A DNA stretch of 64,000 bases from Lishizhenia tianjinensis (GTDB lineage Bacteria > Bacteroidota > Bacteroidia > Flavobacteriales_D > Crocinitomicaceae). The DNA is taken from positions 14,029 to 78,028 of the forward strand of contig CAMDLY010000003.1 in the NCBI GenBank assembly GCA_945902115.1. Reading direction: 5' to 3'. This document shows, one piece after another, positions 2,254-64,000 of this stretch (within the stretch, counting starts at the first letter, position 1; each line of letters opens with the position of its first letter). Made by a program: the position numbers and the translations under genes. Under the pieces are notes generated by a model that was not told the origin of the DNA, ran no database searches, and saw only the letters and a list, made by a program, of their open reading frames with translations.

Positions 2254-3927
2254 TTATAAATCGGTTATACATCCCAAGGATGCGCACGAAACATGTTTCG
2301 CATATTTGTATAAAACTCCTGATGAAACTTTCAGCTTGGGTTGTTTCCACTCCTCTTTCCGCTCTTTCAACTGAGCTTCACTAACTTCTAGAATCAATTT
2401 ATTTTCAAGGGCATCAATGGTAATCATATCACCGTCCTTTACTAAGGCAATTGTACCGCCATCGTATGCCTCCGGTGAAATGTGACCAACAACAAACCCG
2501 TGTGTTCCCCCCGAAAAACGCCCGTCTGTTATCAAGGCCACAGAAGAACCCAATCCTGCTCCGATGATGGCAGAGGTAGGCTTTAACATTTCAGGCATTC
2601 CTGGTCCTCCTTTGGGGCCGCAATAACGAATCACGACAACATCACCTTCTTTTACTTTTCCTTTCGAAATACCTGCAATAACATCGAATTCATTATCGAA
2701 TACCACTGCTGGTCCTTGGAAAAACTCCCCTTCCTTACCTGTAATCTTTGCTACCGAACCTCGTTCAGCTAAGTTTCCAAAAAGTATTTGGATATGACCA
2801 GAATCTTTTAGTGGATGCTCAAGTGGAACAATTACCTTTTGCCCATCAATCAGCGAAGGAACCTCAGATAAGTTCTCAGCCAGTGTTTTTCCTGTCACAG
2901 ATAAGCAATCGCCGTGTAGTAGCTTCTTTTCCAATAAATACTTCATGACCGCGGGAGTTCCTCCTACGCGATGAACGTCTTCCATGAGGTATTTTCCGCT
3001 GGGCTTTAAATCAGCAAGCAAAGGAATACGGTTGCTTATATCTTGAAAATCTGCTAGTTTCAACTCTACTCCCACCGCATGTGCCATAGCCAATAAATGA
3101 AGCGTCGCATTCGTTGAGCCACCGAGAGCACAAAGAATTACCATGGCATTTTCAAAGGCTTTTCTCGTCATGATATCTCTCGGTTTGATATCTTTTTCCA
3201 ACAATAAGCGCATCGCACTTCCCGCGCGTAAACACTCTTGTTGTTTTTCTTCACTAGTAGCAGGATTCGAGGAACTATATGGTAAACTCATGCCCAATGC
3301 TTCAATGGTTGATGCCATGGTATTTGCGGTATACATTCCGCCGCAAGCCCCAGCTCCCGGACAGGCATTTTGTATAATTCCCTTGTAGTCTTCGTCGGAA
3401 ATAGTATTCGCCATTCGTTGTCCAAGCGCTTCGAAAGCAGAAACAATATTTAAATCTTGCCCCTTCCATTTTCCTGAATGAATAGTTCCTCCGTAAACCA
3501 TAATAGCAGGGCGATTTAATCTTCCCATGGCAATGACTGAACCTGGCATATTTTTATCGCAGCCCATCACAGCAATGATACCGTCGTACCATTGCGCACC
3601 TGCAACTGCTTCAATCGAATCAGCAATTATGTCCCGAGAAACTAACGAATAGCGCATTCCATCGGTTCCGTTTGAAATTCCGTCACTGACCCCAATCGTA
3701 TGAAAGGTAAGACCAACTAATTCAGCTGCTTGAACCCCCATTTTAACTGTTTTGGCCAGGTCATTCAAGTGCATATTGCACGTGTTTCCCTCGTAGCCAC
3801 TAGATACAATGCCCACTTGAGCTTTGCTCATATCCGCTTCAGAAAAACCAACACCGTAAAGCATCGCTTGTGCCGCTGGCTGTGTCTCGTCTTGCGTGAT
3901 GGTCTTACTGTATTTATTGAGTTTCAT
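2254..3927 (-). CDS. ilvD: dihydroxy-acid dehydratase
   Basis: 557 aa with the IlvD/Edd signature [10 protein letters not shown] and a C-terminal GRFSGGTHG motif. Confidence 0.95.
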
Positions 3928-4823
3928 TATAAATAGACTTCTTTATACTCATTAAAAGCTACCCTTCTCTTGTATTTACGTTGAATGAGGTGACTGTTTG
4001 AATCTTCCCAATTCAACGGTAATATATAGTCGTTGAATTTGCCAATGCCAATTACTTCGGCTGCTGTCCCGCAGAAAAATGCGGCATCCGCTAAATATAT
4101 TTCTTCAGGTTTGAATAATCTTTCTTCAACCTCAATACCTAGTTCCTTAGCAATCTCAAATACGGTGGCACGAGTGATTCCTGATAAGATATTACCGAGA
4201 GGAGGCGTGAATAATTTACCGTCTTTTTCATAAAAGAAATTTGCCCCCGGTCCTTCCGCGATAAATCCATTGATATCCGTCAAGAGTGCTTCATGATACC
4301 CGTTTTGCTTAGCCTCCGTCGTTGCTAAAATGCTGTTTGTATAGTGTCCCACGACTTTTGCTTGCACGTGGCAACTTTTGGGGTTAGGTCGTTGATACGA
4401 GGAAAGCATCACATGCAATAAGTTATCCCCTAGATATTTCCCCCATTCCCAAGCCATCATCACTAAATGCACTTCATTTGTTGGCGTAAGCGACATATTT
4501 GCCCCTAAATAAACCAAAGGACGTATGTATGCATCTTTCAATTTATTAATCTCTAACAATTCATAGGATAATCTTGTCAACTCATCTGCAGTCCAAGGAA
4601 AAGGCATGTACATTGATTCTGCGGAATATTTGAGACGTTCGTAATGTTCTTTAGCTTTGAAAATTCTCACGCCATCAGGTGTATCGTACGAACGAATTCC
4701 TTCAAAAACACCGCTACCGTAATGAAGTGTTTGGGAATATAAATCTGTTTGTGCCTCTTTCGCCGGGATAAACTTGCCGTCCAGGTAAACTTTAGAATCA
4801 GCATTGTAATACATACTTTCCAT
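3927..4823 (-). CDS. ilvE: branched-chain amino acid aminotransferase (class IV)
   Basis: 298 aa with the motif [10 protein letters not shown]. It is the first gene of the ilv operon, and its stop overlaps the ilvD start. Confidence 0.85.
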
Positions 4824-6220: not shown

Positions 6221-7902
6221 TACACCAATTTTCTGTATTTAATGCGCTTAGGACCTTGGTCACCCATTCGTTTTTTTCGATTTTCTTCGTATTCAGAATA
6301 AGAACCTTCAAACCAATAAACTTGAGAATCACCTTCAAACGCCAATATATGTGTACAAATCCGATCTAAGAACCACCTATCGTGAGAAATGACCACTGCA
6401 CAGCCTGCAAAGCTCTCAATTCCTTCCTCTAGTGCACGCAAAGTGTTTACGTCTATGTCATTCGTTGGTTCATCCAACAACAACACATTCGCTTCGGTCT
6501 TCAATGTCATGGCCAAGTGCAATCTATTTCTCTCACCTCCGGATAGTACTCCAACTTTCTTGTTTTGATCTGCTCCCATGAAATTAAACTTACTGAGGTA
6601 TGCGCGTGAAATTATTTTTTGATTGCCAATTTCAATATATTCGAGGCCGTTAGAAACCACATCAAAAACAGTTTTCTCTGGATGAATATCTTTGTGTGTT
6701 TGGTCTACGTATCCTATTTTCACAGTATCTCCAACCAAAAATTCCCCTTTATCTTGATTAAGTTCATTCATAATCATTTTGAAGATTGTTGTTTTACCAG
6801 CTCCATTAGGGCCAATCACCCCTACAATTCCGGCAGGAGGTAATTTAAAATTCAAGTCGTCATATAATAATTTATCACCAAATGCTTTCGCCACATTTAC
6901 TGCTTCGATCACATTTTGGCCTAGTCTCGGTCCATTAGGAATTGGAATTTCCAACTTAGCTTCTTTGTCTTTAGCGTCTTCTGCTAACAGTTTGTCGTAA
7001 TTCTGTAAACGCGCTTTACTTTTAGCCTGTCTCGCTTTAGGATTCATACGCACCCACTCCAACTCTCTCGCCAACATCTTTTGACGCTTCGACTCAGTTT
7101 TTTCCTCTTCTGAGAGGCGCTGACCCTTTTGCTCTAACCATGAGGAATAATTTCCTTTCCACGGAATACCTTCCCCTCTATCTAATTCAAGTATCCAACC
7201 CGCAACATTATCTAAGAAATAACGGTCGTGAGTAACTGCAATCACTGTTCCTTTGTACTGTTGTAAATGTTGCTCCAACCAATCTATTGATTCGGCATCC
7301 AAGTGGTTGGTAGGTTCATCTAGCAATAAAATATCAGGATTTTTCAATAGTAATCGGCAAAGCGCTACCCTTCTTTTTTCACCACCGGACAAAGTGGATA
7401 TTAACTGATCGTCTGGTGGACAGCGCAAAGCATCCATCGCTCTTTCTAGTTTACTATCCAATTCCCATGCATCGAGGGCATCAATTTTATCTTGTACCTC
7501 CCCTTGTCTCGCAATAAGTTTATCCATTTTATCGGGATCATTCAGCACATCTTCATCCATGAAAGCGGCATTAATTTCCTCGTATTCTTTGAGAATATCA
7601 ACAGTTTCCTGAACTCCCTCCATGACAACTTCCTTAACGGTTTTGGTCAACTCTAAATCAGGCTCTTGCGGTAAATAACCTACCGTATAACCGGCAGAAA
7701 AAACAACGTCACCCTGATAAGCTTGATCCAATCCTGCAATAATTTTCATCACTGTGGACTTTCCAGAACCATTTAAACCTATGATTCCGATTTTTGCGCC
7801 ATAAAAAAATGACAAATAAATATTCTTGATAATTTGTTTTCCTTGCGGGGTGGTTTTTGATACTCCCACCATGGAGAAAATGATTTTTTTGTCGTCTGAC
7901 AT
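6220..7902 (-). CDS. ettA: ABC-F protein, energy-dependent translational throttle EttA
   Basis: 560 aa with two ABC cassettes and no transmembrane domain. The cassette motifs are GLNGSGKST with LSGGEKRR, and GPNGAGKTT with LSGGERNR. Confidence 0.9.
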   Translation of the reverse strand: MSDDKKIIFSMVGVSKTTPQGKQIIKNIYLSFFYGAKIGIIGLNGSGKSTVMKIIAGLDQAYQGDVVFSAGYTVGYLPQEPDLELTKTVKEVVMEGVQETVDILKEYEEINAAFMDEDVLNDPDKMDKLIARQGEVQDKIDALDAWELDSKLERAMDALRCPPDDQLISTLSGGEKRRVALCRLLLKNPDILLLDEPTNHLDAESIDWLEQHLQQYKGTVIAVTHDRYFLDNVAGWILELDRGEGIPWKGNYSSWLEQKGQRLSEEEKTESKRQKMLARELEWVRMNPKARQAKSKARLQNYDKLLAEDAKDKEAKLEIPIPNGPRLGQNVIEAVNVAKAFGDKLLYDDLNFKLPPAGIVGVIGPNGAGKTTIFKMIMNELNQDKGEFLVGDTVKIGYVDQTHKDIHPEKTVFDVVSNGLEYIEIGNQKIISRAYLSKFNFMGADQNKKVGVLSGGERNRLHLAMTLKTEANVLLLDEPTNDIDVNTLRALEEGIESFAGCAVVISHDRWFLDRICTHILAFEGDSQVYWFEGSYSEYEENRKKRMGDQGPKRIKYRKLV

Positions 7903-7905
7903 AAC

Positions 7906-9318
7906 TTATTTTTTAGTTGTTGAACACTGAAAAGTTGATTTTGGCAGTGTTGTTTTTGCAATTGCATTGTAACCCCCTATCACATCTACCAACTGATGAT
8001 AACCTCTGGATTTTAGAATTGATGCTGCAATCATACTGCGATACCCCCCTGCACAATGCAATACAATCGGATTGTCTTTGGGGTAAGATGAGAAATTCTC
8101 ATTGATAAAATCTAAAGGTAAGGTTTGGGCTATTTCGAGGTGCTCGGCTTCAAACTCTCCCGGCTTTCGAACATCAATAATTGGCTGACTAAACCATTCT
8201 CTTTCATTTTCCAACTGCGCAGCCGTGATACGTTCTACTGAGGCGATTTCATTTCCTGCAGCACTCCAAGTGGCAAATCCTCCTTTAAGATAACCTAAAA
8301 CGTTGTCATACCCAACGCGTGCTAATCTTTTAACGGCCTCTTCTTCACGTCCAATTTCAGTAATGAGCAATATTGCTTGTTTTATATCCGAAATTAATGC
8401 TCCAACCCAGGGCGCAAACTGACCGTCTAAACCAATAAAAATACTATTTGGAATATGGCTATCCGCAAAATCTTGCGCACTCCTTGTATCTAAAATAAGT
8501 ACATCTTCACCAGATGCATGTTGTTCAAAGGCTTCAGTAGATAACGGATTCACTCCCCTTTTCATTACATCGTTGATCGAATCATAACCCGATTTATTCA
8601 ACATAACATTTTTTCCAAAATAGCTCGGAGGAGGTAGTAGCCCCTCGGTTAATTCTTTTATAAATTCCTCTTTTGACATGTCTTCTCTGAGTGCATAGTT
8701 GGATATCTTTTGCTCACCGATTGTTCCTGTAGTTTCTTTGGACATATTTTTTCCACACGCACTTCCTGCTCCATGAGCGGGATAGACCGTAACGTCATTA
8801 GGTAGAGTCATTAATTTTGTTCTGAGAGAGTCAAATAATAATCCTGCAAGGCCTTCCTGCGTCATCGAAGCGGCCTTTTGTACTAAGTCGGGTCTACCAA
8901 CATCACCGATAAACAAAGTGTCTCCCGTGAAAACTGCTGCTTCTTTATTGTTTTCATCGAGTAATAAGTAACATGTCGATTCCATCGTGTGTCCGGGAGT
9001 GTGTAAAACTTTTATCGTCAAATCTCCGACGTGTAAAAGTTCTCCATCTAAAGCGGAGTGATACGAATAGTTCGTTGCCGCATTTGGACCGAATACGATT
9101 GTTGCGCCAGTTGCTTTTGAAAGATCGAGGTGACCAGAAACAAAATCCGCATGGAAATGGGTTTCTAAGATATATTTGATTTTAACTCCATCCCGCGCTG
9201 CTCTTTCCAAGTAAGGTTGCGTTTCACGCAAGGGGTCAATAATAACAGCTTCTCCGTTGGAGTGGATGTAATATGCTCCTTGTGCTAAACATCCCGTATA
9301 AATTTGTTCTATAAACAT
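7906..9318 (-). CDS. MBL-fold hydrolase fused to rhodanese domains (persulfide dioxygenase-like)
   Basis: 470 aa with the metallo-beta-lactamase motif THFHADFVSGH. The C-terminal rhodanese active-site loop is HCAGGYRS. Confidence 0.8.
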   Translation of the reverse strand: MFIEQIYTGCLAQGAYYIHSNGEAVIIDPLRETQPYLERAARDGVKIKYILETHFHADFVSGHLDLSKATGATIVFGPNAATNYSYHSALDGELLHVGDLTIKVLHTPGHTMESTCYLLLDENNKEAAVFTGDTLFIGDVGRPDLVQKAASMTQEGLAGLLFDSLRTKLMTLPNDVTVYPAHGAGSACGKNMSKETTGTIGEQKISNYALREDMSKEEFIKELTEGLLPPPSYFGKNVMLNKSGYDSINDVMKRGVNPLSTEAFEQHASGEDVLILDTRSAQDFADSHIPNSIFIGLDGQFAPWVGALISDIKQAILLITEIGREEEAVKRLARVGYDNVLGYLKGGFATWSAAGNEIASVERITAAQLENEREWFSQPIIDVRKPGEFEAEHLEIAQTLPLDFINENFSSYPKDNPIVLHCAGGYRSMIAASILKSRGYHQLVDVIGGYNAIAKTTLPKSTFQCSTTKK

Positions 9319-9339
9319 ATTAGATAATACTATTGACTA

Positions 9340-9347
9340 CAAAATTA
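9340..9347 (-). promoter_or_regulatory. -7 promoter box TAATTTTG
   Basis: Exact TAnnTTTG match on the minus strand, 21 nt upstream of the ATG at 9318. Confidence 0.45.
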
Positions 9348-9369
9348 ATCCTTTATGGTTGTTAAAAGA

Positions 9370-10998
9370 CTATTCTGCCGCGTAAACTTTTTCACCTGAG
9401 ATAAATGTCATCCATGAAAAATTCTCTTCGAATTGAGGTTTTGATTGCACTGGTTTTTCAAAAATGGCAAAATCTGCCCATTTTCCGGTCTCTAAAGTGC
9501 CCCTTTCCTTTTCTTGAAAAGCCGCAAAAGCTGCCCATATGGTCATGCCCTTCAACGTTTCGTTGAGGGTTAATGCTTCACCTTTCAGAAAGCCGTCAAT
9601 AGGCTCATTTTTAGCATTCATTCGTTGAACAGCAGCATGAATAGTTAAAAAAGGGTTAGTTAACTCTACGGGAAAATCTGTTCCTAATGCCAACATACCG
9701 TATTGCTTTATCAAGGTAGCATAGGCATATGCTCCTTTCAATCGGTTCTTCCCAATTCTATTTTCCACCCATCGCTGGTCAGAAACAGCATGCGTTGGCT
9801 GCACAGAGGGCATTACGCCATATTGCGAGAATTTGACAAAATCTTTCGGGTCAACAATTTGTGCATGTTCAATTCTGAATCGATGATCTTTTTTGACTTG
9901 ATATACCTTTCTGTAAAGCTCCAAGACCATTGCGTTCGCAGAGTCTCCGATACAATGCGTGTTCATTTGATAATCTAAATCCAAGGCTAAGAGCGCAATT
10001 CTCCGCATTTTTTTCATGTCGCTAACCAACAAACCGTGATGGTTATGATCGTCTTCATATGGTTTTTTAAGTAGTGCCCCCCGAGAACCGAGTGCTCCAT
10101 CTGCCATCACTTTAAAACTTCGAATGGATAAGTTTTTATAGGCGTAAATACCATTCTTCTTGGCAAAAGCGATATTTTCTTCACTGGGAACAAGCATCGC
10201 ATATACATTTAGTTTAAAGCCATTGTTATCAATTATATTTTTCAAAAAGGATATGTGCTGAAATTCTATTCCGGCTTCATGGACACCTGTAATACCGTAA
10301 GCAAATAATTCCTGTTGGATCGCAATTATGGTAGAAATTATGTCCTTATCACTAAATTTTGGTGAAAAATATTCAACCAGAGACATAGCATTGTCGACTA
10401 ATAAACCAGTCAAACGGCCATTTGAAGTATGAATTTTCCCTCCTTCTACTTTGCTATTAACGGTTATACCTGCTTTTTTTAATAAAAAATCATTCGCAAT
10501 GAGTGCATGACCGTCCACGCGATATAAGCAGACAGGCACATCAGGAAATAACTCATTAAGCAGTTCATTTGTTGGCATTTCACTCGTACCCCATAATGAC
10601 TGATCCCATCCTCTTCCAATAATGAAATTTCTCTTTGTTTTTTTTCTGTATTCTTCACACGCCGTCAATAACTCCTTCATCGAGGATAAACCGAATAAAT
10701 TGACTGATAATTTCTGTTGTGCATATGAAAATAAATGTCCGTGAGCATCGGTAAATCCCGGATAGATATCTCTGCCGCCAGCATCAATAATTTCATCCGC
10801 ATGATATTTGTTCAAAATTTGTCTATCAGGCCCTATCTCCACAATTTTACCCTCTGAGATTGCCATCGCTTGTTGAACATTTTCTCCATCTACCATTGTA
10901 TGGATTGAAGCATTGTGGATTATTCGGTCCACCGTCTCCCCTTTCATACATGAGGACAATAATACTAGACTAAAAAAAGAAAGGATAAAAAGCTTCAT
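9370..10998 (-). CDS. amidohydrolase family protein (Amidohydro_3 / YtcJ-like), secreted or lipoprotein
   Basis: 542 aa with a signal peptide ending LLSSC. It has the metal-binding motif GFTDAHGH and a C-terminal GTDFP. Confidence 0.75.
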   Translation of the reverse strand: MKLFILSFFSLVLLSSCMKGETVDRIIHNASIHTMVDGENVQQAMAISEGKIVEIGPDRQILNKYHADEIIDAGGRDIYPGFTDAHGHLFSYAQQKLSVNLFGLSSMKELLTACEEYRKKTKRNFIIGRGWDQSLWGTSEMPTNELLNELFPDVPVCLYRVDGHALIANDFLLKKAGITVNSKVEGGKIHTSNGRLTGLLVDNAMSLVEYFSPKFSDKDIISTIIAIQQELFAYGITGVHEAGIEFQHISFLKNIIDNNGFKLNVYAMLVPSEENIAFAKKNGIYAYKNLSIRSFKVMADGALGSRGALLKKPYEDDHNHHGLLVSDMKKMRRIALLALDLDYQMNTHCIGDSANAMVLELYRKVYQVKKDHRFRIEHAQIVDPKDFVKFSQYGVMPSVQPTHAVSDQRWVENRIGKNRLKGAYAYATLIKQYGMLALGTDFPVELTNPFLTIHAAVQRMNAKNEPIDGFLKGEALTLNETLKGMTIWAAFAAFQEKERGTLETGKWADFAIFEKPVQSKPQFEENFSWMTFISGEKVYAAE

Positions 10999-54844: not shown

Positions 54845-56044
54845 ATGCCAAAAATCTCAGTAAAAGCTGAAGCCATGCCGGCATCTCCAATAAGGAAACT
54901 TGTTCCGTTTGCAGAGGCAGCAAAAAAACGTGGTACAACCGTTTATTATTTAAATATCGGACAACCTGACATTGAGACTCCCGAAATCGCGCTTAATGCC
55001 ATTAAAAATTTAGACAGAAAAGTTATTGAATATTCTCATTCTGCGGGCTTCGAAAGTTATAGAATGAAATTGTCAGCCTCTTATATTAAACAGGGATTAC
55101 CGGTAAATACAGAAGATATTTTAGTCACGACGGGAGGTTCTGAAGCTCTTATTTTTGGTTTTATGACTACCTGTAATCCAGGTGACGAAGTGATTATCCC
55201 AGAACCATTTTATGCCAACTACAATGGCTTTGCCGTAACCGCTGGACTGAACGTTGTTCCAGTAACTTCGAGCATAGAAAGTGGCTTTGCTTTACCACCA
55301 GTCGAAGAAATAGAGAAAAAAATTACACCAAAGACTAAAGCTATTGTCATATGTAATCCTGGTAACCCAACAGGCTATTTATACTCTCAAAGTGAATTAG
55401 AGCAACTGCGAGATATCGTCAAAAAATATGATTTATTTCTTTTCGCAGACGAGGTCTACAGAGAATTTTGTTACGATGGAGCACAACCATTTTCTGTAAT
55501 GAATCTCGCCGGTATTGAAAATAATGTCGTGATGATTGACTCTGTTTCAAAACGCTATTCGATGTGTGGAGCAAGGATTGGTGCTATGGTCACGAAGAAT
55601 AAAGATGTCATGGCTGCAGCACTCAAATTTGGACAAGCAAGACTCTCACCTCCAACAATAGATCAGATAGCTGCTGAGGCCGCATTGGATACGCCGCAGA
55701 GCTACTTTGACAATGTTGTAGAAGAGTATGTTGAAAGACGAAATATAATGGTTGACGGATTAAATGAAATCCCCGGTGTGTTTTGTCCAAAGCCGTCTGG
55801 AGCGTTTTATTGTGTAGCAAGCTTTCCTGTTGACGATGCTGAAAAATTTTGTCAATGGTTGTTGCAAGATTTTAGTTACAATGGCCAAACGGTTATGATG
55901 GCTCCTGCTAATGGATTCTACTCAACAAAAGGCGCGGGAAAAAAGGAAGCACGAATAGCTTATGTTCTCAATAAAGAATCACTGAGAAATGCTGTTCAGT
56001 GTTTAAAAAAAGCACTTGAAGAATACCCCGGTAAAACAGTCTGA
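54845..56044 (+). CDS. PLP-dependent class I aminotransferase (aspartate aminotransferase-like)
   Basis: 399 aa with the PLP-lysine motif DSVSKRYSMCGARIG and NPGNPTG. Confidence 0.88.
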   Translation: MPKISVKAEAMPASPIRKLVPFAEAAKKRGTTVYYLNIGQPDIETPEIALNAIKNLDRKVIEYSHSAGFESYRMKLSASYIKQGLPVNTEDILVTTGGSEALIFGFMTTCNPGDEVIIPEPFYANYNGFAVTAGLNVVPVTSSIESGFALPPVEEIEKKITPKTKAIVICNPGNPTGYLYSQSELEQLRDIVKKYDLFLFADEVYREFCYDGAQPFSVMNLAGIENNVVMIDSVSKRYSMCGARIGAMVTKNKDVMAAALKFGQARLSPPTIDQIAAEAALDTPQSYFDNVVEEYVERRNIMVDGLNEIPGVFCPKPSGAFYCVASFPVDDAEKFCQWLLQDFSYNGQTVMMAPANGFYSTKGAGKKEARIAYVLNKESLRNAVQCLKKALEEYPGKTV

Positions 56045-56048
56045 AACA

Positions 56049-56519
56049 ATGACTGTTGAGGATATATTGGCAGCTGTTTCTGAAGAAAGGAAGGACAGCT
56101 TTAATTTGCTCCGAAAAACGATTATAGACAACCTTCCACAAGGATTCGAGGAAACTGTGAGTTACGGAATGATCAGTTATGTAGTCCCTCACAAAATATA
56201 CCCGCAGGGATACCATTGCAATCCTAACATTGCGTTACCCTTTCTAAGTATTGCCTCTCAAAAGAATACCATAAATTTATATCATATGGGTATTTATGCT
56301 GACAGCAACTTATATGACTGGTTCGTATCGGAATTTCCGAAACATACTACTCAAAAATTAGCTATAGGGAAATCCTGTATTCGGTTTAAGAAAATGAACG
56401 AAATTCCTTTTAATCTATTAGGTTCACTTGTTGGTAAAATGACAACCAATGAATGGATCAACCTCTATGAGCGTACATTCAAAAAACAACTTAGCACACA
56501 ACTTTTTGCGACAATATAG
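56049..56519 (+). CDS. DUF1801-like protein (chromosomal paralog of the 63435-63890 gene)
   Basis: About 156 aa, counted from the internal ATG (MTVEDIL). By hand alignment over ~145 aa it is identical to the 63435-63890 product at somewhat more than half of positions. Shared blocks include YVVPH.IYP.GYHC, ASQKN.IN.YHMGIYAD and GKSCIRFKK. Confidence 0.6.
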   Translation: MTVEDILAAVSEERKDSFNLLRKTIIDNLPQGFEETVSYGMISYVVPHKIYPQGYHCNPNIALPFLSIASQKNTINLYHMGIYADSNLYDWFVSEFPKHTTQKLAIGKSCIRFKKMNEIPFNLLGSLVGKMTTNEWINLYERTFKKQLSTQLFATI

Positions 56520-57936: not shown

Positions 57937-58716
57937 ATGGCTGAAGGTGTTTTGACAATATTAGGTTCAGGAACTTCTCAAGGCGTTCCGGTAATCGCTT
58001 GCAATTGTGCTACATGCAAATCTGAGGACCCGAAAGATAATAGAACAAGAAGTAGTGTTTTGATACATGCTGACGGTAGACAATTTGTTATTGATACAGG
58101 ACCAGATTTTCGTCATCAAATGCTACGAGAGAATGTTCAGTTCTTAAATGGTGTTATTTTCACGCACCAGCACAAGGACCATATTGCCGGACTTGACGAT
58201 GTCAGAGCTTTTAATCACAAACAAAATGAAGCAATGCCCGTTTACGCAACTGCTGCAGTTAATGAGGCATTACACCGAGAATATCATTATATTTTTTCCG
58301 AAGAAAGTTACCCAGGTGTTCCTAAGCTAAGCGTCGAACTGATTGACCTTGCACCGTTCTCGATAACAAATTCTTTGCGTTTAACACCTATACTCGTAAA
58401 CCATTACAAGATGCCGGTACTGGGTTTCCGTATGGGTGATCTGACTTATATTACTGATGCTAAAACTATTGCAGAAAGTGAAAAAGAAAAAATTATAGGA
58501 TCTAAGACATTAATAATTAATGCTTTACATATTTATCCACACATATCACATTTTAATTTAGAGGAGGCTTTGGCATTTATCGATGTGGTTAAACCAGAAA
58601 AAGCTTTTCTCACTCATATTTCTCATTTATTTGGAAAACACGAAGACATTTTTCGCTTATTGCCCTCGCATGTAGAACCAGCCTTTGACGGCTTGAAAAT
58701 ACCTTTTTACTACTAA
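57937..58716 (+). CDS. MBL-fold metallo-hydrolase (PhnP-like)
   Basis: 259 aa with the motif FTHQHKDHIAGLDD and an N-terminal Cys cluster (CNCATC). Confidence 0.8.
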   Translation: MAEGVLTILGSGTSQGVPVIACNCATCKSEDPKDNRTRSSVLIHADGRQFVIDTGPDFRHQMLRENVQFLNGVIFTHQHKDHIAGLDDVRAFNHKQNEAMPVYATAAVNEALHREYHYIFSEESYPGVPKLSVELIDLAPFSITNSLRLTPILVNHYKMPVLGFRMGDLTYITDAKTIAESEKEKIIGSKTLIINALHIYPHISHFNLEEALAFIDVVKPEKAFLTHISHLFGKHEDIFRLLPSHVEPAFDGLKIPFYY

Positions 58717-58717
58717 A

Positions 58718-58848
58718 GCTTAACGTTTTGCGGCTACCCGAAGGGCGGGACTTTTACCACAAAACTTGATTTGAAAAACTAATGTTTGATTAACCACAAA
58801 ACTGTCTTTGGAACACGAACCCTCGCCTTTTGGGTAGGTGCTGTTAGC
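58718..58848 (-). repeat. attC-like structured repeat, copy 1 (131 nt), terminal site of the array
   Basis: On the + strand it reads GCTTAAC ... GTTAGCA. The terminal helix is GCT(T)AACG/TGTTAGC, followed by an 8x4 internal loop. A 16-bp stem pairs 58734-58749 (CTACCCGAAGGGCGGG) with 58822-58837 (CCTCGCCTTTTGGGTAG-type arm). Internal modules TTAACCAC and AAACTGTCT are shared with copies 2 and 3. It ends 7 nt before the phzF-family stop codon. Confidence 0.7.
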
Positions 58849-58855
58849 AGTAGTT

Positions 58856-59644
58856 TTATTCTGTCCAAAATTCTCCAATTGAATATGTTTTTGCTTGTCC
58901 ACTAATAATCACTCGGTCTCCTTTGTCTTCACAATACAACTTGCCCAATCGTTCAGAAACTTGTTGAGCATAAAGTTCTTTTTTATTTAGTCTTTTCGCC
59001 CAAAATGGAATTAAAGAACAATGTGCAGAACCTGTTACAGGGTCTTCTAAAATTGATGCTTGCGGTGTGAAAAATCTTGAAATGAAATCGCAATTGTCTC
59101 CAATTGCTGTTACAATTACACCTCCTGGGTCAAGATTTATTTGGTCGAATAATTGTCTGTCAATTTTTATGTTTCTAACTTCTGTTTCATTTTCATACAC
59201 CAAAACATAGTCTCTTGATTTCAAAATTTCTTTCGGTTGAATATTTAAGGATTTTGAAATTGTCGTTGGTAAGATGTCGACAATAGGCATTCTTGATGGG
59301 AAGTTCATTTTATATTTTCCATTTTCAATTTTGACAATTAAGTCGCCACTTAAAGTTTCAAACACAATTTTATCTTTCTTATAGTCAAGAATTGTCGCTA
59401 AACCATGAGCAGTTGCAAGTGTAGCGTGACCGCACAAATCCATTTCAATTTCAGGCGTAAACCATCGTAAATGGATTTTTTCTCCTTTGTCAACAAAAAA
59501 AGCAGTTTCAGCAACTGCGTTTTCTTTTGCTATTTTCAACAAGATTTCGTCTGACAACCAATTGTCAAGTGGCACAACACAAGCAGGATTTCCTCCAAAA
59601 ATTGTGTCCGTAAATGCGTCAATTTGATATATATTATGTTTCAC
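58856..59644 (-). CDS. PhzF-family isomerase
   Basis: 262 aa with N-terminal IYQIDAFT...FGGNPACVV and C-terminal TGSAHC. The start codon is GTG. Confidence 0.8.
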   Translation of the reverse strand: MKHNIYQIDAFTDTIFGGNPACVVPLDNWLSDEILLKIAKENAVAETAFFVDKGEKIHLRWFTPEIEMDLCGHATLATAHGLATILDYKKDKIVFETLSGDLIVKIENGKYKMNFPSRMPIVDILPTTISKSLNIQPKEILKSRDYVLVYENETEVRNIKIDRQLFDQINLDPGGVIVTAIGDNCDFISRFFTPQASILEDPVTGSAHCSLIPFWAKRLNKKELYAQQVSERLGKLYCEDKGDRVIISGQAKTYSIGEFWTE

Positions 59645-59661
59645 TATGTTCTGTTTAAAAT

Positions 59662-59718
59662 TACTGCTAACGAGTATATACTAACAATAAAACGATACTT
59701 ATCTAATCAATGTTGGGT
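59662..59718 (-). repeat. degenerate or truncated attC-like site (boundaries uncertain)
   Basis: TACTGCTAAC at 59662-59671 is the exact reverse complement of the distal box of copy 1 (GTTAGCAGTA, 58843-58852). A GTTGGGT box (GTTRRRY) lies at 59712-59718. The long stem of the full copies is missing, and further family-like fragments (TGAACCATTCTTTGT around 59787) follow. Confidence 0.35.
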
Positions 59719-59872
59719 GACTAAGGATGGTTTTAACATCCAATTTTGTATGACTAATTTAACTGCAATTTACAAATTATGAAAGGTGAACCATTCTTTG
59801 TTCTTCTTTTATTGCTAATTGAAGAACAAAATTATAGGTCGGACTTAAGCTTTCATAAATTGGTTTTATAAA

Positions 59873-60559
59873 CTAGTCAAGTTGTTCGAATGAACGAATT
59901 GCATTGTTTGAACTAAAATAGAGCGTGTAATTTTTACCTACTGTAAAAACTTGGCTAACAAAACTGAATGCAAATGCTTGCTCGCCCATCACTACATATT
60001 CAATTTTGCTGCGGTATTCTATTTTTATCGGACCGCTTATTTTGTCAACCGTTCCTTGTTGCGCAGCTTTACGTGCTTTCCAATAGAAAAAAAGGCCAAT
60101 GGCACTTAGGGGCAAAAAACTAAAGATGGAAAGGACTATCCCCCTTTCTACCATCAGAAGGATTAAAACACTAAAGATTACTGAAAGTGCACCAAAGACA
60201 ACCAAGATAGTTAAACCCGCTTTTTGGGTTTGCTTTTTTTGCCTATCGCTTAAAAATCCTTTTCTATTTATCTTCAAATCCTCTTCAGTAAAACTAAAAA
60301 AAGGATAATTTACCCCTTTGCTTTTTGTTTTTGGTTGAATGGGGGTGGTCTCGTTTTGAGCAATTTTTGCTATACGATCTAGCGTTTGGTTGCCAAAGGA
60401 TTTGTATTCTATAATTTCATCTGCAGTTAAATGAATGTATTTACTATACATACCAACACTGCCGCAAATAACTTCTAAAACATAATCATCATTTAGATTA
60501 TATAAGACATAATTCCAAGGACTTTTGGTTATTTCTGTATAATTGTCGAGGTTAATCAT
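59873..60559 (-). CDS. hypothetical membrane protein (two central transmembrane helices)
   Basis: 228 aa ORF. It has a soluble N-terminal ~100 aa, two hydrophobic helices (LTILVVFGALSVIFSVLILLMV and VLSIFSFLPLSAIGLFFYW) and a soluble C-terminal ~60 aa. I recognise no family. Confidence 0.45.
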   Translation of the reverse strand: MINLDNYTEITKSPWNYVLYNLNDDYVLEVICGSVGMYSKYIHLTADEIIEYKSFGNQTLDRIAKIAQNETTPIQPKTKSKGVNYPFFSFTEEDLKINRKGFLSDRQKKQTQKAGLTILVVFGALSVIFSVLILLMVERGIVLSIFSFLPLSAIGLFFYWKARKAAQQGTVDKISGPIKIEYRSKIEYVVMGEQAFAFSFVSQVFTVGKNYTLYFSSNNAIRSFEQLD

Positions 60560-60575
60560 GCTTTTCCAGATGTTG

Positions 60576-61619
60576 TTACTTTAACTTTTCACAGTTGATT
60601 TCACCTTCTAATTGAAAGCGTTCAAATTCCGAATCACTAAACGCACCATTACCATTATTAATTCTACGGAAATAAACATCACCAAAAAAGCATTTATCAT
60701 TTTCTGAATAAACAATAGTACACCTAGCTGCTTTTGATTTTATGGTGCCATCTACTTTATTGGTTATTGAATAAGATTGAACATAATTTATATATTTTAC
60801 TTTTGAACCAGGTTGCGCATTCTCAAACAATTCTATGGCATGCGCTTTTGATACTTCTGCATCTTTTTCATTAAAACTGTTTGACTGGTAACCCTCTGGA
60901 AGTTCATTATGAACATAATGTTTTGTTTTTCGGGAATTAGTGGACGGGTAACGTACATCAAACAAATACTGTGATCTCAACCCTTTTAACTTTAATGGTT
61001 GATTATTTTTTTTTAATTCACCCTTTGAGTTGGTATATTCAATGGTAATGATGGTGTTAGCGTCTTTTGGACTATCGCTAATTGCCATATTGTTAACTGC
61101 ATCAACACTACTTTTGATGTATGAGTTGTTTTCAAAATCAGGAAAGGAAGATGCCGCATTAACATCTGGTAGTAAATCGAAAAAAAGATAGGTTGTTCCT
61201 TTTCCTTCTGGATCATAGTTGACCGCAAACACACTTAATTCACCAGGATTTGATTGGTTTTTGGATTTTAATTCCATTACTGCTTTTACTTTTGTTTGGT
61301 TTAAAGCACCAAACCAACATTTCCAAGCAATTGCACCCGACTTTTTTGCAGTTGCGTTATGTGCACCTGTGTGTTTTGTATGGTATAAAAATAAATTGTT
61401 TCCAGATGGCGTGCCGAACAAATCAAAAAAACCTGCATCATCAATTTTGATAACACCATATGCATTTTGCTTGGTTATATCTATTTCGTTGATGCCCACC
61501 AATGTGGAGGTTGCGGTATCTTCAATTACAAAAGGTTTTTCAGTAATAATTATCGTTTGTCCAACGGAGAAAAAGGGAGACAAAAAAAACAATATTGCAA
61601 GATGGTTGAGTTTTTTCAT
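60576..61619 (-). CDS. hypothetical secreted protein
   Basis: About 347 aa from the internal ATG (MKKLNHLAILFFLSPFFSVGQ, signal-like). I recognise no motif. It ends 16 nt upstream of the start of the 59873-60559 ORF. Confidence 0.5.
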   Translation of the reverse strand: MKKLNHLAILFFLSPFFSVGQTIIITEKPFVIEDTATSTLVGINEIDITKQNAYGVIKIDDAGFFDLFGTPSGNNLFLYHTKHTGAHNATAKKSGAIAWKCWFGALNQTKVKAVMELKSKNQSNPGELSVFAVNYDPEGKGTTYLFFDLLPDVNAASSFPDFENNSYIKSSVDAVNNMAISDSPKDANTIITIEYTNSKGELKKNNQPLKLKGLRSQYLFDVRYPSTNSRKTKHYVHNELPEGYQSNSFNEKDAEVSKAHAIELFENAQPGSKVKYINYVQSYSITNKVDGTIKSKAARCTIVYSENDKCFFGDVYFRRINNGNGAFSDSEFERFQLEGEINCEKLK

Positions 61620-61640
61620 TTCTAATTGATTTTGGTTAAA

Positions 61641-61648
61641 CAAATATA
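61641..61648 (-). promoter_or_regulatory. -7 promoter box TATATTTG inside a cassette
   Basis: Exact TAnnTTTG match on the minus strand, 21 nt upstream of the ATG at 61619. Confidence 0.4.
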
Positions 61649-61801
61649 GAAAAGTTTTTATTGTTTGCAAGAAAACAAATTTCGTAATTCAATTTAACCA
61701 TACGTTGCAAAAACGTAGAAATTCTTACACCACAAAATATTTATTCCAATCTATTTTTTAAACGATAGCCCTTTTTCTTTTAATGCTTTTTGTAAAATGG
61801 T

Positions 61802-61946
61802 GCATAACGTTTTGGCGCTTGGCGAAGAAGCGGATTTCGAAGCACTAAACTGTCTGCCATCACTAAACTTGATACGAAGCACAATCCCGATAGCTATCGG
61901 GATCATTTAACCACTGAACCGCCAATTTCTTGTAGGTGCTGTTAGC
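61802..61946 (-). repeat. attC-like structured repeat, copy 2 (145 nt, irregular stem)
   Basis: On the + strand it reads GCATAAC ... GTTAGCC with terminal helix GC(A)TAACG/TGTTAGC. It shares TAACGTTTTG and TAGGTGCTGTTAGC with copy 1. It shares ATTTAACCACTGAAC (15/15) and TACGAAGCAC (10/10) with copy 3. It contains the 20-nt perfect palindrome ATCCCGATAGCTATCGGGAT (61884-61903) and lies 30 nt past the stop codon of the T9SS-cargo gene. Confidence 0.7.
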
Positions 61947-61976
61947 CACAGTGAAGTTTGTCGTTGTACAGTCGTG

Positions 61977-63206
61977 TCAGTCAGTGATTACTAGTTTGCT
62001 TTGTGTAATAATTTTATTGTCTTTTGTTAAGCGAATAAAATAAATTCCGCTTGCTAAATTATCCCTGTCTATTTTTATTTCATTTCCGGAAATCCTATTT
62101 ATTGTTTTTACCTTTTGCCCAAACACATTATAAAGGTTGACTTCTGCCTCATGCAACATGGAGTTACTTTGAATAGTTGTAAAATCATTAAATGGATTTG
62201 GAGAAATGCTTAATTGATTTACATCGGTTTGGTTTTCTAAAACAGCAGTAACTAAAGTCAAATCACAATCCAAAATAAAAGGTTGGGAGTTGTAATTGTT
62301 TTTCCAGATTGTTACCACTTCAGGTATGAACTTCCACTCCACTTTGTTTTGAGAAACCAATACGTTAATGGAGTCCATGAGGTCATCCATTTTTACGTTA
62401 ATGAAACCGGGTACTCCAAGATAGCTTTCTCTAAAAAAAACACTTGTGCAATAAAAACCGTTTGCTGGGGCCGCGCCAGATTGAATAGCATTTACTATAT
62501 AGCGAATTTCATTCATTACAGTAGTAATATTTGTAGTGTCATGCACTTCTATCTTACAACCCTGCCCGTAATTGATAAGGTGATTAGAAGGTTGGTGTGT
62601 GAAAAACGAAGTCATAGATTGAGGTTTCCACATTCCGTAATCTACCGGATCATTTGTATGGCCCGGTGTTGCTGCCCCCCAAAGGATTTCAGGCGCCCAT
62701 GTATAATTTGGGAATACAACTCCTGCCGTAGGGTTTTGATAATCTTGCCAGTCGTGTCCACTTTGAAGCTGGCTATATAAAAACCCACTCATTACAGTTC
62801 CGGGATTTACACCCAAACTATCATGAAGTTTTGCAACATCTGCATTGTTGTATGTGCTTTCGTGCGCATGAGGATCACATTCTACATTATTTATGTAAGC
62901 GGAGGAAATGTATTTTAATACATTTTGACCACCTGTGTTCATCTGAACAGTTCCTGTATCATATTTTATTACCGCTCTCAACAGTATATGATCGCTTCCT
63001 AAATGCCACTTAGCTCCTTTAGCAGTAGCCAATTGGGCCATCTGTATTATTCTGGGTCTTACGCTGTAAAACGAAGGAGGGTTAGTTAAGTAAGTGTAAT
63101 TTTCTTCGTTATGCGAAACAATGTTGATATATAATTTTGGAAGTTGAGCCTGAGCAATAAAAAATGTGAATGTAAACTGCAAGGCAAGTAGTAATTTCTT
63201 TTTCAT
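61977..63206 (-). CDS. secreted protein with a T9SS C-terminal sorting domain; N-terminal domain unknown, possibly a metal-dependent hydrolase
   Basis: About 409 aa from the internal ATG (MKKKLLLALQF...AQAQ). The Por-type tail is LSISPNPFNDFTTIQ...LASGIYFIRLTKDNKIITQSKLVITD. Candidate metal ligands are SHNEE and DPHAHE. Confidence 0.7.
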   Translation of the reverse strand: MKKKLLLALQFTFTFFIAQAQLPKLYINIVSHNEENYTYLTNPPSFYSVRPRIIQMAQLATAKGAKWHLGSDHILLRAVIKYDTGTVQMNTGGQNVLKYISSAYINNVECDPHAHESTYNNADVAKLHDSLGVNPGTVMSGFLYSQLQSGHDWQDYQNPTAGVVFPNYTWAPEILWGAATPGHTNDPVDYGMWKPQSMTSFFTHQPSNHLINYGQGCKIEVHDTTNITTVMNEIRYIVNAIQSGAAPANGFYCTSVFFRESYLGVPGFINVKMDDLMDSINVLVSQNKVEWKFIPEVVTIWKNNYNSQPFILDCDLTLVTAVLENQTDVNQLSISPNPFNDFTTIQSNSMLHEAEVNLYNVFGQKVKTINRISGNEIKIDRDNLASGIYFIRLTKDNKIITQSKLVITD

Positions 63207-63292
63207 TTTCTTTTTGTCAGTGATTATAGTGCTGACTCTGCACTTTTTAGTTGAATCCAAGGTCAATAATATTCTGTCTTTGTTGCATTGTG

Positions 63293-63423
63293 GCTAACGG
63301 TTCTCAGCTATACGCAGGCAGGGATTTAACCACTGAACTTCCCACGAAGAACTGAACTTTAAATTTATCACTTTCCTGTCCTACGAAGCACGAAACCCCT
63401 GCTTGCGTATAGGTGATGTTAGC
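63293..63423 (-). repeat. attC-like structured repeat, copy 3 (131 nt)
   Basis: On the + strand it reads GGCTAAC ... GTTAGCG with terminal helix GCTAACG/TGTTAGC and an 8x4 internal loop. A 16-bp stem pairs 63308-63323 (CTATACGCAGGCAGGG) with 63397-63412 (CCCTGCTTGCGTATAG). It lies 12 nt past the DUF1801 stop codon. Confidence 0.7.
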
Positions 63424-63434
63424 GGGTCGTTGTT

Positions 63435-63890
63435 CTATTTTTTCATTGTTTTTTCGTAAATATTTATCCATTCTTTGACACTTATTTTCTTCATTAAGTC
63501 ACCAATGAGTTTGTATGGAATTTCGTCTAGCTTTTTAAAACGAATACAACTTTTTCCCATATCAAGTTTTTGCTTAGTGTGCTTTGGATATTCCGTTACA
63601 AACCATTCCAATAATTTGGTGTCTGCATAAATGCCCATATGGTAAAAATTAATAGAATTTTTCTGCGAAGCAAGTCCTGCAAATGGTAGTGGTTCACTTG
63701 GTTTACAATGATAACCTGCTGGATAAATTGTATGAGGGACAACATATCCCAAACCACCATAACTAATGGCTGCTTCAAAACCGTCCGGCAGGTTCTTTAC
63801 TATAACTTCGTGTAGTTTGTTAAAAGGTTCTGACCTGTCTTTGGGAAGGTTTGTCAGAATTTCGTTTACAGTTTTTCCGTTTGCTTTCAT
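63435..63890 (-). CDS. DUF1801-like protein (cassette-borne paralog)
   Basis: 151 aa. See the alignment with the 56049-56519 product. Confidence 0.6.
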   Translation of the reverse strand: MKANGKTVNEILTNLPKDRSEPFNKLHEVIVKNLPDGFEAAISYGGLGYVVPHTIYPAGYHCKPSEPLPFAGLASQKNSINFYHMGIYADTKLLEWFVTEYPKHTKQKLDMGKSCIRFKKLDEIPYKLIGDLMKKISVKEWINIYEKTMKK

Positions 63891-63902
63891 ATGTGATTAG
63901 TG

Positions 63903-64000
63903 TTAACGATGTTGGTCAAGTAAAATCACATTTCCGTCAGGGTCGGTTAGCATTAGGCTTGCAGGCCCTTTGGTTTTTTCGTCAGCTTCGCTTGTAAGTT
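63903..64000 (-). CDS. VOC/glyoxalase-family protein, C-terminal fragment (partial at the window edge)
   Basis: Hand translation of the minus strand gives ...LTSEADEKTKGPASLMLTDPDGNVILLDQHR-stop. The DPDGN.I.L ending is typical of the VOC fold. Only 32 codons are visible. Confidence 0.4.
   Translation of the reverse strand, partial: LTSEADEKTKGPASLMLTDPDGNVILLDQHR

Follow-up and report, generated by a model that had tools for sequence, protein, structure and literature searches.

Complementary boxes around a phzF-family gene of Lishizhenia tianjinensis as probable halves of one recombination site in an integron-like cassette array

The stretch of Lishizhenia tianjinensis DNA analyzed here (Crocinitomicaceae, Bacteroidota; contig CAMDLY010000003.1 of assembly GCA_945902115.1), in the following termed the window, is 64,000 nt long and carries in its last 6 kb three copies of an attC-like repeat of about 130-145 nt. 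All three copies have the same orientation, and each is an imperfect palindrome with a long stem and with GCTAAC-like and GTTAGC-like ends. The genes between the copies all lie on the minus strand and comprise phzF, two genes for hypothetical proteins of 228 and 364 aa, a gene for a cargo protein of the type IX secretion system (T9SS) and a DUF1801 gene (Table 1). The phzF and T9SS-cargo genes and their neighbors are accessory cargo, not core genes, and the short complementary boxes that flank phzF are the focus of this report. We consider these boxes, with a probability of roughly 0.85, to be halves of a single site-specific recombination site, which is split when a circular gene cassette inserts into the array.

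The 10-mer GTTAGCAGTA has two exact copies in the whole window, at 58843-58852 on the plus strand and at 59662-59671 on the minus strand, and the box TACTGCTAAC ends 17 nt ahead of the GTG start codon of phzF at 59644. An earlier note on this DNA had pointed out that 58843-58852 is the exact reverse complement of 59662-59671, and the match in fact reaches further, extending over 16 nt with one mismatch (15/16) between 58843-58858 (GTTAGCAGTAGTTTTA) and 59656-59671 (TAAAATTACTGCTAAC). The mere occurrence of such a match is not significant. In the window, which has a GC content of 36.6%, there are 236 exact inverted 10-mer pairs within 1500 nt of each other and 5646 overall, while inverted pairs of 16 nt (at most one mismatch, within 1500 nt) number 9, versus about 12 in Markov simulations. 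Since inverted 10-mers are this common, their count proves little, and it was the rule governing their positions that needed a test; this position rule is the non-random part of the observation.

Read on the minus strand, each unit starts directly after the ...CG|TTR end of the upstream repeat (the bar marks the point of exchange), and the first 9-16 nt of the cassette complement a stretch of the cassette's own repeat, downstream, that ends at the YAAC box. Among 79 consecutive repeat pairs drawn from about 60 Bacteroidota genomes other than that of the window, 47 (59%) obey this rule with at least 9 exact nt, compared with 1.6% of 6044 random pairs. The earlier note's claim that the bracketing is not due to chance is therefore upheld by this comparison, whereas its own argument, that two 10-mers would hardly match by accident in 64 kb, is weak in view of the 236 pairs within 1500 nt. 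The note was also right that phzF and the T9SS-cargo gene share one kind of bracketing, the boxes GTTAGCCAC and GTGGCTAAC of the latter following the same rule, but it did not identify the bracketing as an integron-type cassette's recombination site split in two. Further pairs are found in the glyoxalase/DUF1801 cassette (GTTAGCGGG and CCCGCTAAC), in a DUF6438 cassette (GTTAGCGGTA and TACCGCTAAC), in a cassette with MerC and a cation diffusion facilitator (CDF)/cation-efflux gene (GTTAGCAGTAATGG and CCACTACTGCTAAC) and in a lipocalin cassette (GTTGGCAGAA and TTCTGCCAAC). One class recurs, in which 10 bp are followed by a fixed A at the cassette start opposite a C at the cassette end and then by 4 bp; the phzF pair (GTTAGCAGTAATTTTA and TAAAACTACTGCTAAC) falls into the class with 10 bp, an A/G position and 4 bp. 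At its non-Watson-Crick position, the arm has A.C on the gene strand and G.T on the opposite one.

The repeats have the parts of an attC site, that is, an inner YAAC box (R''), a stem of about 20 bp and an outer CG|TTR box (R'), with the minus-strand boxes reading nnYTAAC ... CG|TTRnnn and with TAAC and GTTA (nearly) invariant in 80 aligned copies. Like integron sites, they thus carry terminal inverse-core (RYYYAAC) and core (GTTRRRY) boxes around an imperfect palindrome, and exchange takes place at G|TT, the cassette start being the outer half of the cassette's own attC. Because exchange occurs at G|TT, the bases beyond the G of an R' box belong to the next cassette and match that cassette's own R'' across the gene. 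The position of exchange is illustrated by locus L010, where copy 3 ends in CCGTTGGC, not in CCGTTAGC, and the incoming lipocalin cassette has the matching R'' TTCTGCCAAC; the end GTTGGC in place of GTTAGC places the exchange point before the fourth base of GTTR. Correspondingly, G59671 in the window is the final base of the upstream unit and the phzF cassette opens at 59670, while the extended R'' box of this cassette overlaps the phzF stop codon (58856-58858). Cassette B, the upstream unit, opens with TTATGCACCATTTT after copy 2.

The proposed mechanism would make the region, on its minus strand, an integron-like array of co-oriented cassettes, each consisting of one or two genes plus an attC-like palindrome. 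Exchange would occur at G|TT, and whatever follows the G of an R' box would be part of the next cassette. For phzF, G59671|TTAGCAGTAATTTTA would pair with TAAAACTACTGCTAAC (58858-58843), and an excised circle would rejoin the two ends into a 17-bp arm. When the phzF site was circularized in silico, its bottom strand folded into a hairpin whose terminal arm has 17 bp, at -28.3 kcal/mol, compared with -21.2 kcal/mol for the array form. That cassettes pass through such a circular intermediate is what we infer from this arrangement.

Comparison of the window with near-identical metagenome contigs, retrieved by exact-protein look-ups, provides evidence that the units so delimited are also the units that move. 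The earlier note had suggested that phzF and copy 1 might travel together, and indeed 58721/58724-59671 occurs elsewhere at 94-99% identity and with the same ends. In four unrelated runs (X10 and X12, both from activated sludge, as well as X15 and X16), sequence of at least 99% identity is confined to 58716-59675 with zero depth outside, and the contig pieces end at 59671, with loose ends at 58721-58723. Homology covers exactly 59671-58721 (95.8%) in L135, a metagenome-assembled genome (MAG) of the Sphingobacteriaceae, and exactly 59673-58721 (93.5%) in L136, a JGI metagenome contig, each time in unrelated surroundings. The 10-mer at 59662 accompanies the cassette and is not, as the note had considered, part of a conserved phzF promoter. 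The PhzF protein cluster at 90% identity has 502 members.

The same modularity is found at the other end of the array. Copy 3 together with DUF1801 is followed by eight different cassettes in L005-L014, including T9SS-cargo, DUF6438, MerC plus cation-efflux and lipocalin-like genes, and identity to the window breaks off where copy 3 has its outer end, at 63293/63292. The glyoxalase plus DUF1801 cassette in turn lies behind three different attCs (L005, L007 and L013) and always starts with G|TTAGCGGGCATTG. As is the case for integron cassettes, these are discrete mobile units in varied contexts. The opposite assignment, a plus-strand orientation in which each repeat would be owned by the gene on its left, was rejected, since copy 3 stays with DUF1801 and it is the gene on the other side that varies. 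In two freshwater runs of the window's lineage (X1 and X6), the right-hand sequence at 59668 continues into a different cassette beginning G|TTATGCGGCATTTTAGAC, a re-use of the 59671 junction by another cassette. This second junction explains the ends of two MEGAHIT contigs at 59794 (59667 + 127) and of a Logan contig (k=31) at 59668; the ends of L001 and L002 at 59794, considered as an island boundary, were accordingly dismissed as a MEGAHIT overlap (k=127) past the branch at 59667/59668.

The repeats are conserved as a structure, and this structure is strand-asymmetric. In the main stem, 16 of 19 pairs covary in the 80-copy alignment, and 110 of 146 copies have a length of 130 nt. G.T pairs occupy three positions in 37-80 of the 80 copies, the invariant wobbles being present in 79-80 of them, and a one-sided TTTT bulge lies between the terminal box and the stem, together with a G.G mismatch; these, like the wobbles, may correspond to the extrahelical bases of integron sites. 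Folding with DNA parameters gave, for 116 of 146 copies (p = 2e-15), the more stable structure on the strand antisense to the genes, which in the window is the plus strand. Covariance model (CM) R1 scores the window's copies at 115 (copy 1), 94 (copy 3) and 78 bits (copy 2) on the plus strand and, on the minus strand, at 7.2 bits for copy 1 and 19 bits for copy 3, with no match for copy 2. The asymmetry suggests that, as in integrons, recombination may act on the bottom strand in its folded state, the strand antisense to the genes. Scans with Rfam (gathering and E<=10 thresholds) and for tRNA and tmRNA assigned the repeats to no family.

Beyond the window, the repeat pattern matches at least 120 stretches in GTDB species representatives, cultured strains included, and among the matches listed the taxa are Flavobacteriales, Chitinophagales, Cytophagales, Sphingobacteriales, Saprospiraceae, Bacteroidales and Ignavibacteria. 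The genomes of this set include Pedobacter glucosidilyticus DSM 23534, Kaistella chaponensis DSM 23145, Chryseobacterium taihuense CGMCC 1.10941, Flavobacterium croceum DSM 17960 and UKL13-3 (CP012155). The nhmmer search found, among the matches listed, 197 copies in loci of 8 kb each, where they form co-oriented arrays with at most six copies. Across the genome loci, the only recurrent neighbor of the arrays with a plausible role is a tyrosine recombinase, which lies upstream of the array and co-oriented with it in L024, L075, L078, L108 and L130 (in L130 the gene, at 2961-4060, appears frameshifted). A recombinase-profile scan of metagenomes added L137, L140 and L143 with co-oriented genes and L153 (seven copies), L154, L156 and L160 with divergent ones, so that a tyrosine recombinase adjoins the array in 12 loci. 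When the split-site rule is used to place the start of the first cassette, this start is found near the recombinase gene in 9 of the 12 loci, namely 45-100 nt past the recombinase stop codon in L024, L078, L108, L130 and L137, and 100-400 nt before the start of the divergent gene in L153, L154, L156 and L160. In six of these (L024, L078, L130, L153, L154 and L160), the first cassette starts at the motif GCGTWWA-N7-G|TT. The loci thus have, like integrons, an attI-like site beside the recombinase gene where the first cassette starts; the motif, in the form GCGTWWA-N7-G|TTR, often lies inside a short inverted repeat.

These recombinases combine a Phage_int_SAM_4 domain with a contiguous Phage_integrase domain of about 162 residues, and many carry an extra N-terminal region of about 100 aa. 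Their best matches are XerA (5HXY, E 4e-48) and NF040815 (198-230 bits), while with the integron-integrase model TIGR02249 they reach 188-219 bits, the cut-off being 265. Their alignment to the integron integrase (IntI) VchIntIA (2A3V) falls into two pieces and skips residues of about 210-242, which are the IntI-specific insertion. In none of the 12 loci elsewhere is the recombinase next to the array an IntI with the additional domain. As the recombinases lack the insertion and stay below the TIGR02249 cut-off, the defining protein feature of integrons is missing here, though the system works like one. The enzyme acting on the arrays would, by its location next to the GCGTWWA-N7-G|TT site, be the Xer-like tyrosine recombinase found beside arrays elsewhere.

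Several observations weigh against this interpretation. First, no recombinase is visible in the window, where the array exits at the right end, and the link between recombinase and array is one of co-location only. Second, 32 of the 79 repeat pairs break the split-site rule; unrecognized attCs between the detected copies may account for these exceptions. Third, the circular cassette junction was not observed in the runs, which were searched as contigs, not reads. Fourth, the region upstream of phzF holds no recognizable site: in the 201 nt of 59672-59872 nhmmer found no attC of the family, the best covariance-model match reaching 11.1 bits (E 0.17), and each of the four contexts observed has sequence foreign to the family ahead of the phzF cassette. 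In addition, 59660-59800 has no fold (z +0.44), no common motif emerged when attI regions were aligned with what precedes the phzF cassette in the window, in L135 and in L136, and BLAST of 59645-59875 against all loci gave matches in the same lineage only. These results would fit with a second, unrecognized class of sites ahead of phzF or with secondary G|TT sites as insertion points. The window site ...GTATATACTCG|TT was considered as an attI and rejected, for it resembles the motif but has the wrong spacing. Finally, one and the same gene can be followed by different attC bodies, with breaks right after R'', which exchange at R' only does not predict. The T9SS-cargo gene in L008 (2522-2695) has an attC variant of about 170 nt ending in G|TTGGTGGC, and that in L011 has a different attC body too; phzF in L136 (9610-9738) has an attC body of the MerC-cassette type. 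Such swaps could result from gene conversion, from duplex recombination or from exchange that now and then uses the inner box.

These swaps lend some weight to an alternative in which the cassette system is the same but exchange takes place in duplex DNA at short GTTRNN cores, with R'' and R' both usable and the hairpin in an accessory or transcriptional role. The breaks right after R'' behind the T9SS gene (window versus L008) and behind phzF (window versus L136) would follow from it directly, Xer-type enzymes normally use duplex sites, and the 59671 junction functions without a recognizable hairpin. A pure duplex site, however, would have no need of the invariant G.T wobbles and the G/T-rich asymmetry, both of which favor a hairpin on one strand, nor does it fit with a stem preserved by covariation and a largely constant copy length. 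We therefore regard duplex exchange as unlikely, albeit as the most serious competitor of exchange at a folded site.

Less probable still is that the repeats are ordinary attC sites served by a true IntI whose gene lies elsewhere in the genome, with the adjoining Xer-like recombinases being incidental. The R'' and R' boxes roughly fit RYYYAAC and GTTRRRY, the split-site logic, the bottom-strand bias and the co-oriented, seemingly promoter-less cassettes are integron hallmarks, and the neighboring recombinases share the Phage_int_SAM_4 domain and reach the TIGR02249 scores given above. Integrons have, moreover, been reported in Bacteroidota (PMC8618304), including a complete one in Salinibacter ruber (PMC9024848). 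Against this, all array-adjacent recombinases remain under the TIGR02249 cut-off and have a contiguous catalytic domain in which the IntI insertion is absent, the attI-like motif is conserved beside them in six independent loci, the R arm measures 15-16 bp, not 7 bp, and IntegronFinder surveys detect almost nothing in Bacteroidetes (PMC9024848).

It is very improbable that the 10-mer upstream of phzF is the shared terminus of a fourth, degenerate and inverted repeat copy, comparable to a miniature inverted-repeat transposable element (MITE) or a repetitive extragenic palindrome (REP). GCTAAC at 59666-59671 is the terminal hexamer of the family and the 228-nt intergenic region could house a copy, but neither nhmmer nor the covariance model (filters off) finds anything significant in 59645-59872 on either strand, and the region is without a fold. 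Furthermore, the 16-mer accompanies the phzF cassette into other contexts while the sequence from 59672 onward does not, and copies within an array are all co-oriented. The family as a whole does not behave like MITEs or REPs, which are dispersed, produce target-site duplications and have no link to gene modules: its copies form co-oriented arrays spaced by one or two genes, and their flanks are complementary across genes, not directly duplicated. A chance match, or pairing of the 5' and 3' untranslated regions of the phzF mRNA, can be all but set aside, for although inverted 10-mers are frequent in the AT-rich window and both boxes would lie in a transcript started upstream, the rule recurs in 59% of pairs versus 1.6% of controls, the conserved mismatch (A.C on the sense strand, G.T antisense) makes the sense RNA pair worse, and the boxes coincide with DNA breakpoints, which already contradicts both explanations.

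The chromosomal surroundings and the remaining features of the region are collected in Table 1. To the left of the array, synteny is kept on a 93-kb contig and the sequence left of 58716 looks like core genome. The convergent metallo-beta-lactamase (MBL)-fold gene at this boundary has precomputed Pfam matches to Anti-Pycsar_Apyc1 (PF23023) and Lactamase_B_2 (contig look-up). In L135 the array starts directly behind a housekeeping S9 peptidase gene, which appears frameshifted (7765-9878), and L136 contains at 1515-2568 four partial matches to the 3' end of the repeat, exactly 342 nt apart, a series that looks like tandem very short cassettes or a duplicated unit.

Table 1. Features of the cassette array and its left flank (window positions; crossovers are given as the bases on either side of the exchange point)
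Feature	Position	Strand	Remarks
MBL-fold gene, convergent, chromosomal flank	57937-58716	+	array ends 7 nt after its stop codon
attC-like copy 1 (phzF cassette)	58718-58849	-	crossover G58724/T58723; CM 115 bits
Complete phzF cassette, 947 nt (5' box, gene, attC)	58724-59670	-	same span in L135 and L136
Extended R'' box of the attC-like site of the phzF cassette	58843-58858	-	TAAAACTACTGCTAAC; 15/16 complementary to 59656-59671
phzF gene, PhzC-PhzF (PF02567), 262 aa, GTG start	58856-59644	-	Pfam E 2e-46
5' end of phzF cassette, outer half of its own site	59656-59671	-	59670-59656 = TTAGCAGTAATTTTA
Upstream cassette B, hypothetical 364-aa (60576-61670) and 228-aa (59873-60559) genes	59671-61807	-	
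3' non-coding end of cassette B	59672-59872	-	last bases ...ATATACTCG = inner half of crossover site
attC-like copy 2 (T9SS-cargo cassette)	61802-61946	-	crossover G61808/T61807; CM 77.5 bits
T9SS-cargo cassette (gene 61977-63266, Por_Secre_tail)	61808-63297	-	bracketed by GTTAGCCAC / GTGGCTAAC
attC-like copy 3 (glyoxalase+DUF1801 cassette)	63293-63423/63426	-	R'' CCCGCTAAC; crossover G63298/T63297; CM 93.9 bits
Glyoxalase+DUF1801 cassette, partial	63298-64000	-	array continues past the window's right end

Some further elements were observed in and around the cassettes. The center of copy 2 holds an inserted perfect 8-bp hairpin, ATCCCGATAGCTATCGGGAT (61882-61901), which brings its length to 144 nt versus 130 nt. 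A 55-aa open reading frame (63304-63471, minus strand), annotated in several metagenome records, lies almost wholly inside copy 3 and is probably spurious. Past the crossover, at a distance of 16-25 nt, many loci have a purine-rich motif, TA(A/G)(A/G)AC or AAGACGAC(A), found in the window at 59650-59640 and 63285-63275, and an ..AGAA.. tract immediately precedes the extended R''; both could be further protein-binding or translation signals. An imperfect hairpin of about 85 nt (59774-59858, z -3.5), TTTATGAAAG...CTTTCATAA with the inner stem TTGTTCTTC/GAAGAACAA, lies 3' of the 228-aa gene and is unrelated to the repeat family. The DUF1801 gene of the cassette that also carries the glyoxalase gene (63435-63890, minus strand) has a paralogue in opposite orientation in the core region (56016-56519, plus strand), and the two contribute an inverted repeat of 188 nt with 73% complementarity (56236-56423 and 63501-63688).

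Taken beyond the single locus, these findings lead to a wider proposal, to which we give somewhat better than even odds: Bacteroidota carry a phylum-wide, IntI-independent analogue of the integron, by which genes such as phzF, T9SS cargo and those for metal resistance pass between orders and between the habitats freshwater, sludge and sediment. It would consist of a recombinase of the Xer/IntI clade that lacks the IntI insertion and often has an extra N-terminal region, a GCGTWWA-N7-G|TT attI and a folded attC of about 125 nt with a split arm of 15-16 bp. If this is true, a major environmental and host-associated phylum has a cassette platform of its own, which surveys based on IntI and attC models have missed. 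The platform would have a sequence-readable site whose conservation reaches from Flavobacteriales to Bacteroidales and Ignavibacteria, as well as a recombinase between Xer and IntI, and would thus provide a second, independent case for the evolution of folded-DNA recombination and of cassette genesis. It would also account for strain-variable islands and assembly breaks in Bacteroidota MAGs, and the rule that a cassette start complements the cassette's own R'' would delimit cassettes in metagenomes.

Integrons are the best-known gene-capture system of bacteria. Their recorded presence in this phylum is sparse: IntegronFinder 2.0 lists for Bacteroidetes only In0 elements (an integrase without cassettes) and one complete integron, in Salinibacter ruber (PMC9024848), a review counts Bacteroidota among the phyla with integrons (PMC8618304), and a preprint of 2024 gives Bacteroidota as an instance of clades "previously found without any integrons" (10.1101/2024.07.02.601686). 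In the literature searched, which did not cover subscription journals, we found neither the repeat family nor any pairing of Xer-like recombinases with cassette arrays described.

Among the closest known systems are sedentary chromosomal integrons such as the superintegron of Vibrio cholerae with its repeat (VCR) attC sites, which likewise has long arrays of co-oriented cassettes of one or two genes and palindromes of about 120-130 nt that belong to one family. With its array that has no visible integrase and ends at a core gene, the window also resembles an attC-site cluster that has no integron integrase (CALIN), as does L135, where the array starts after the peptidase gene; the CALIN class is, however, set by IntegronFinder attC-model matches, and the window's array, which continues past the window, is likened to it by layout. 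Integrons of the Treponema denticola type have a co-oriented ("inverted") intI and integrases with the IntI additional domain. The arrays described here share with them a recombinase that lies upstream and points in the same direction, with the attI-like site 45-100 nt past its stop codon in five loci, but differ in that their recombinases are without this additional domain. In sequence, the array-associated recombinases are closest to the enzymes of Xer/dif systems and to archaeal XerA. The task of Xer enzymes is the resolution of chromosome dimers at one duplex dif site, and, to our knowledge, they have not been described as maintaining arrays of cassettes with folded sites. With sedentary chromosomal integrons, finally, the arrays have in common the RYYYAAC/GTTRRRY-like boxes, the exchange at G|TT, the better-folding bottom strand and a strain-variable content of diverse, mostly uncharacterized cargo. 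In contrast to them, the recombinases lack the IntI insertion and are often co-oriented with the cassettes, the arm comprises 15-16 bp plus a wobble instead of 7 bp, a one-sided TTTT bulge stands in the place of the spacer, attC bodies are swapped behind one gene, and one family of sites extends across the whole phylum. The array family is thus distinct from canonical integrons in both its recombinase and the architecture of its sites.

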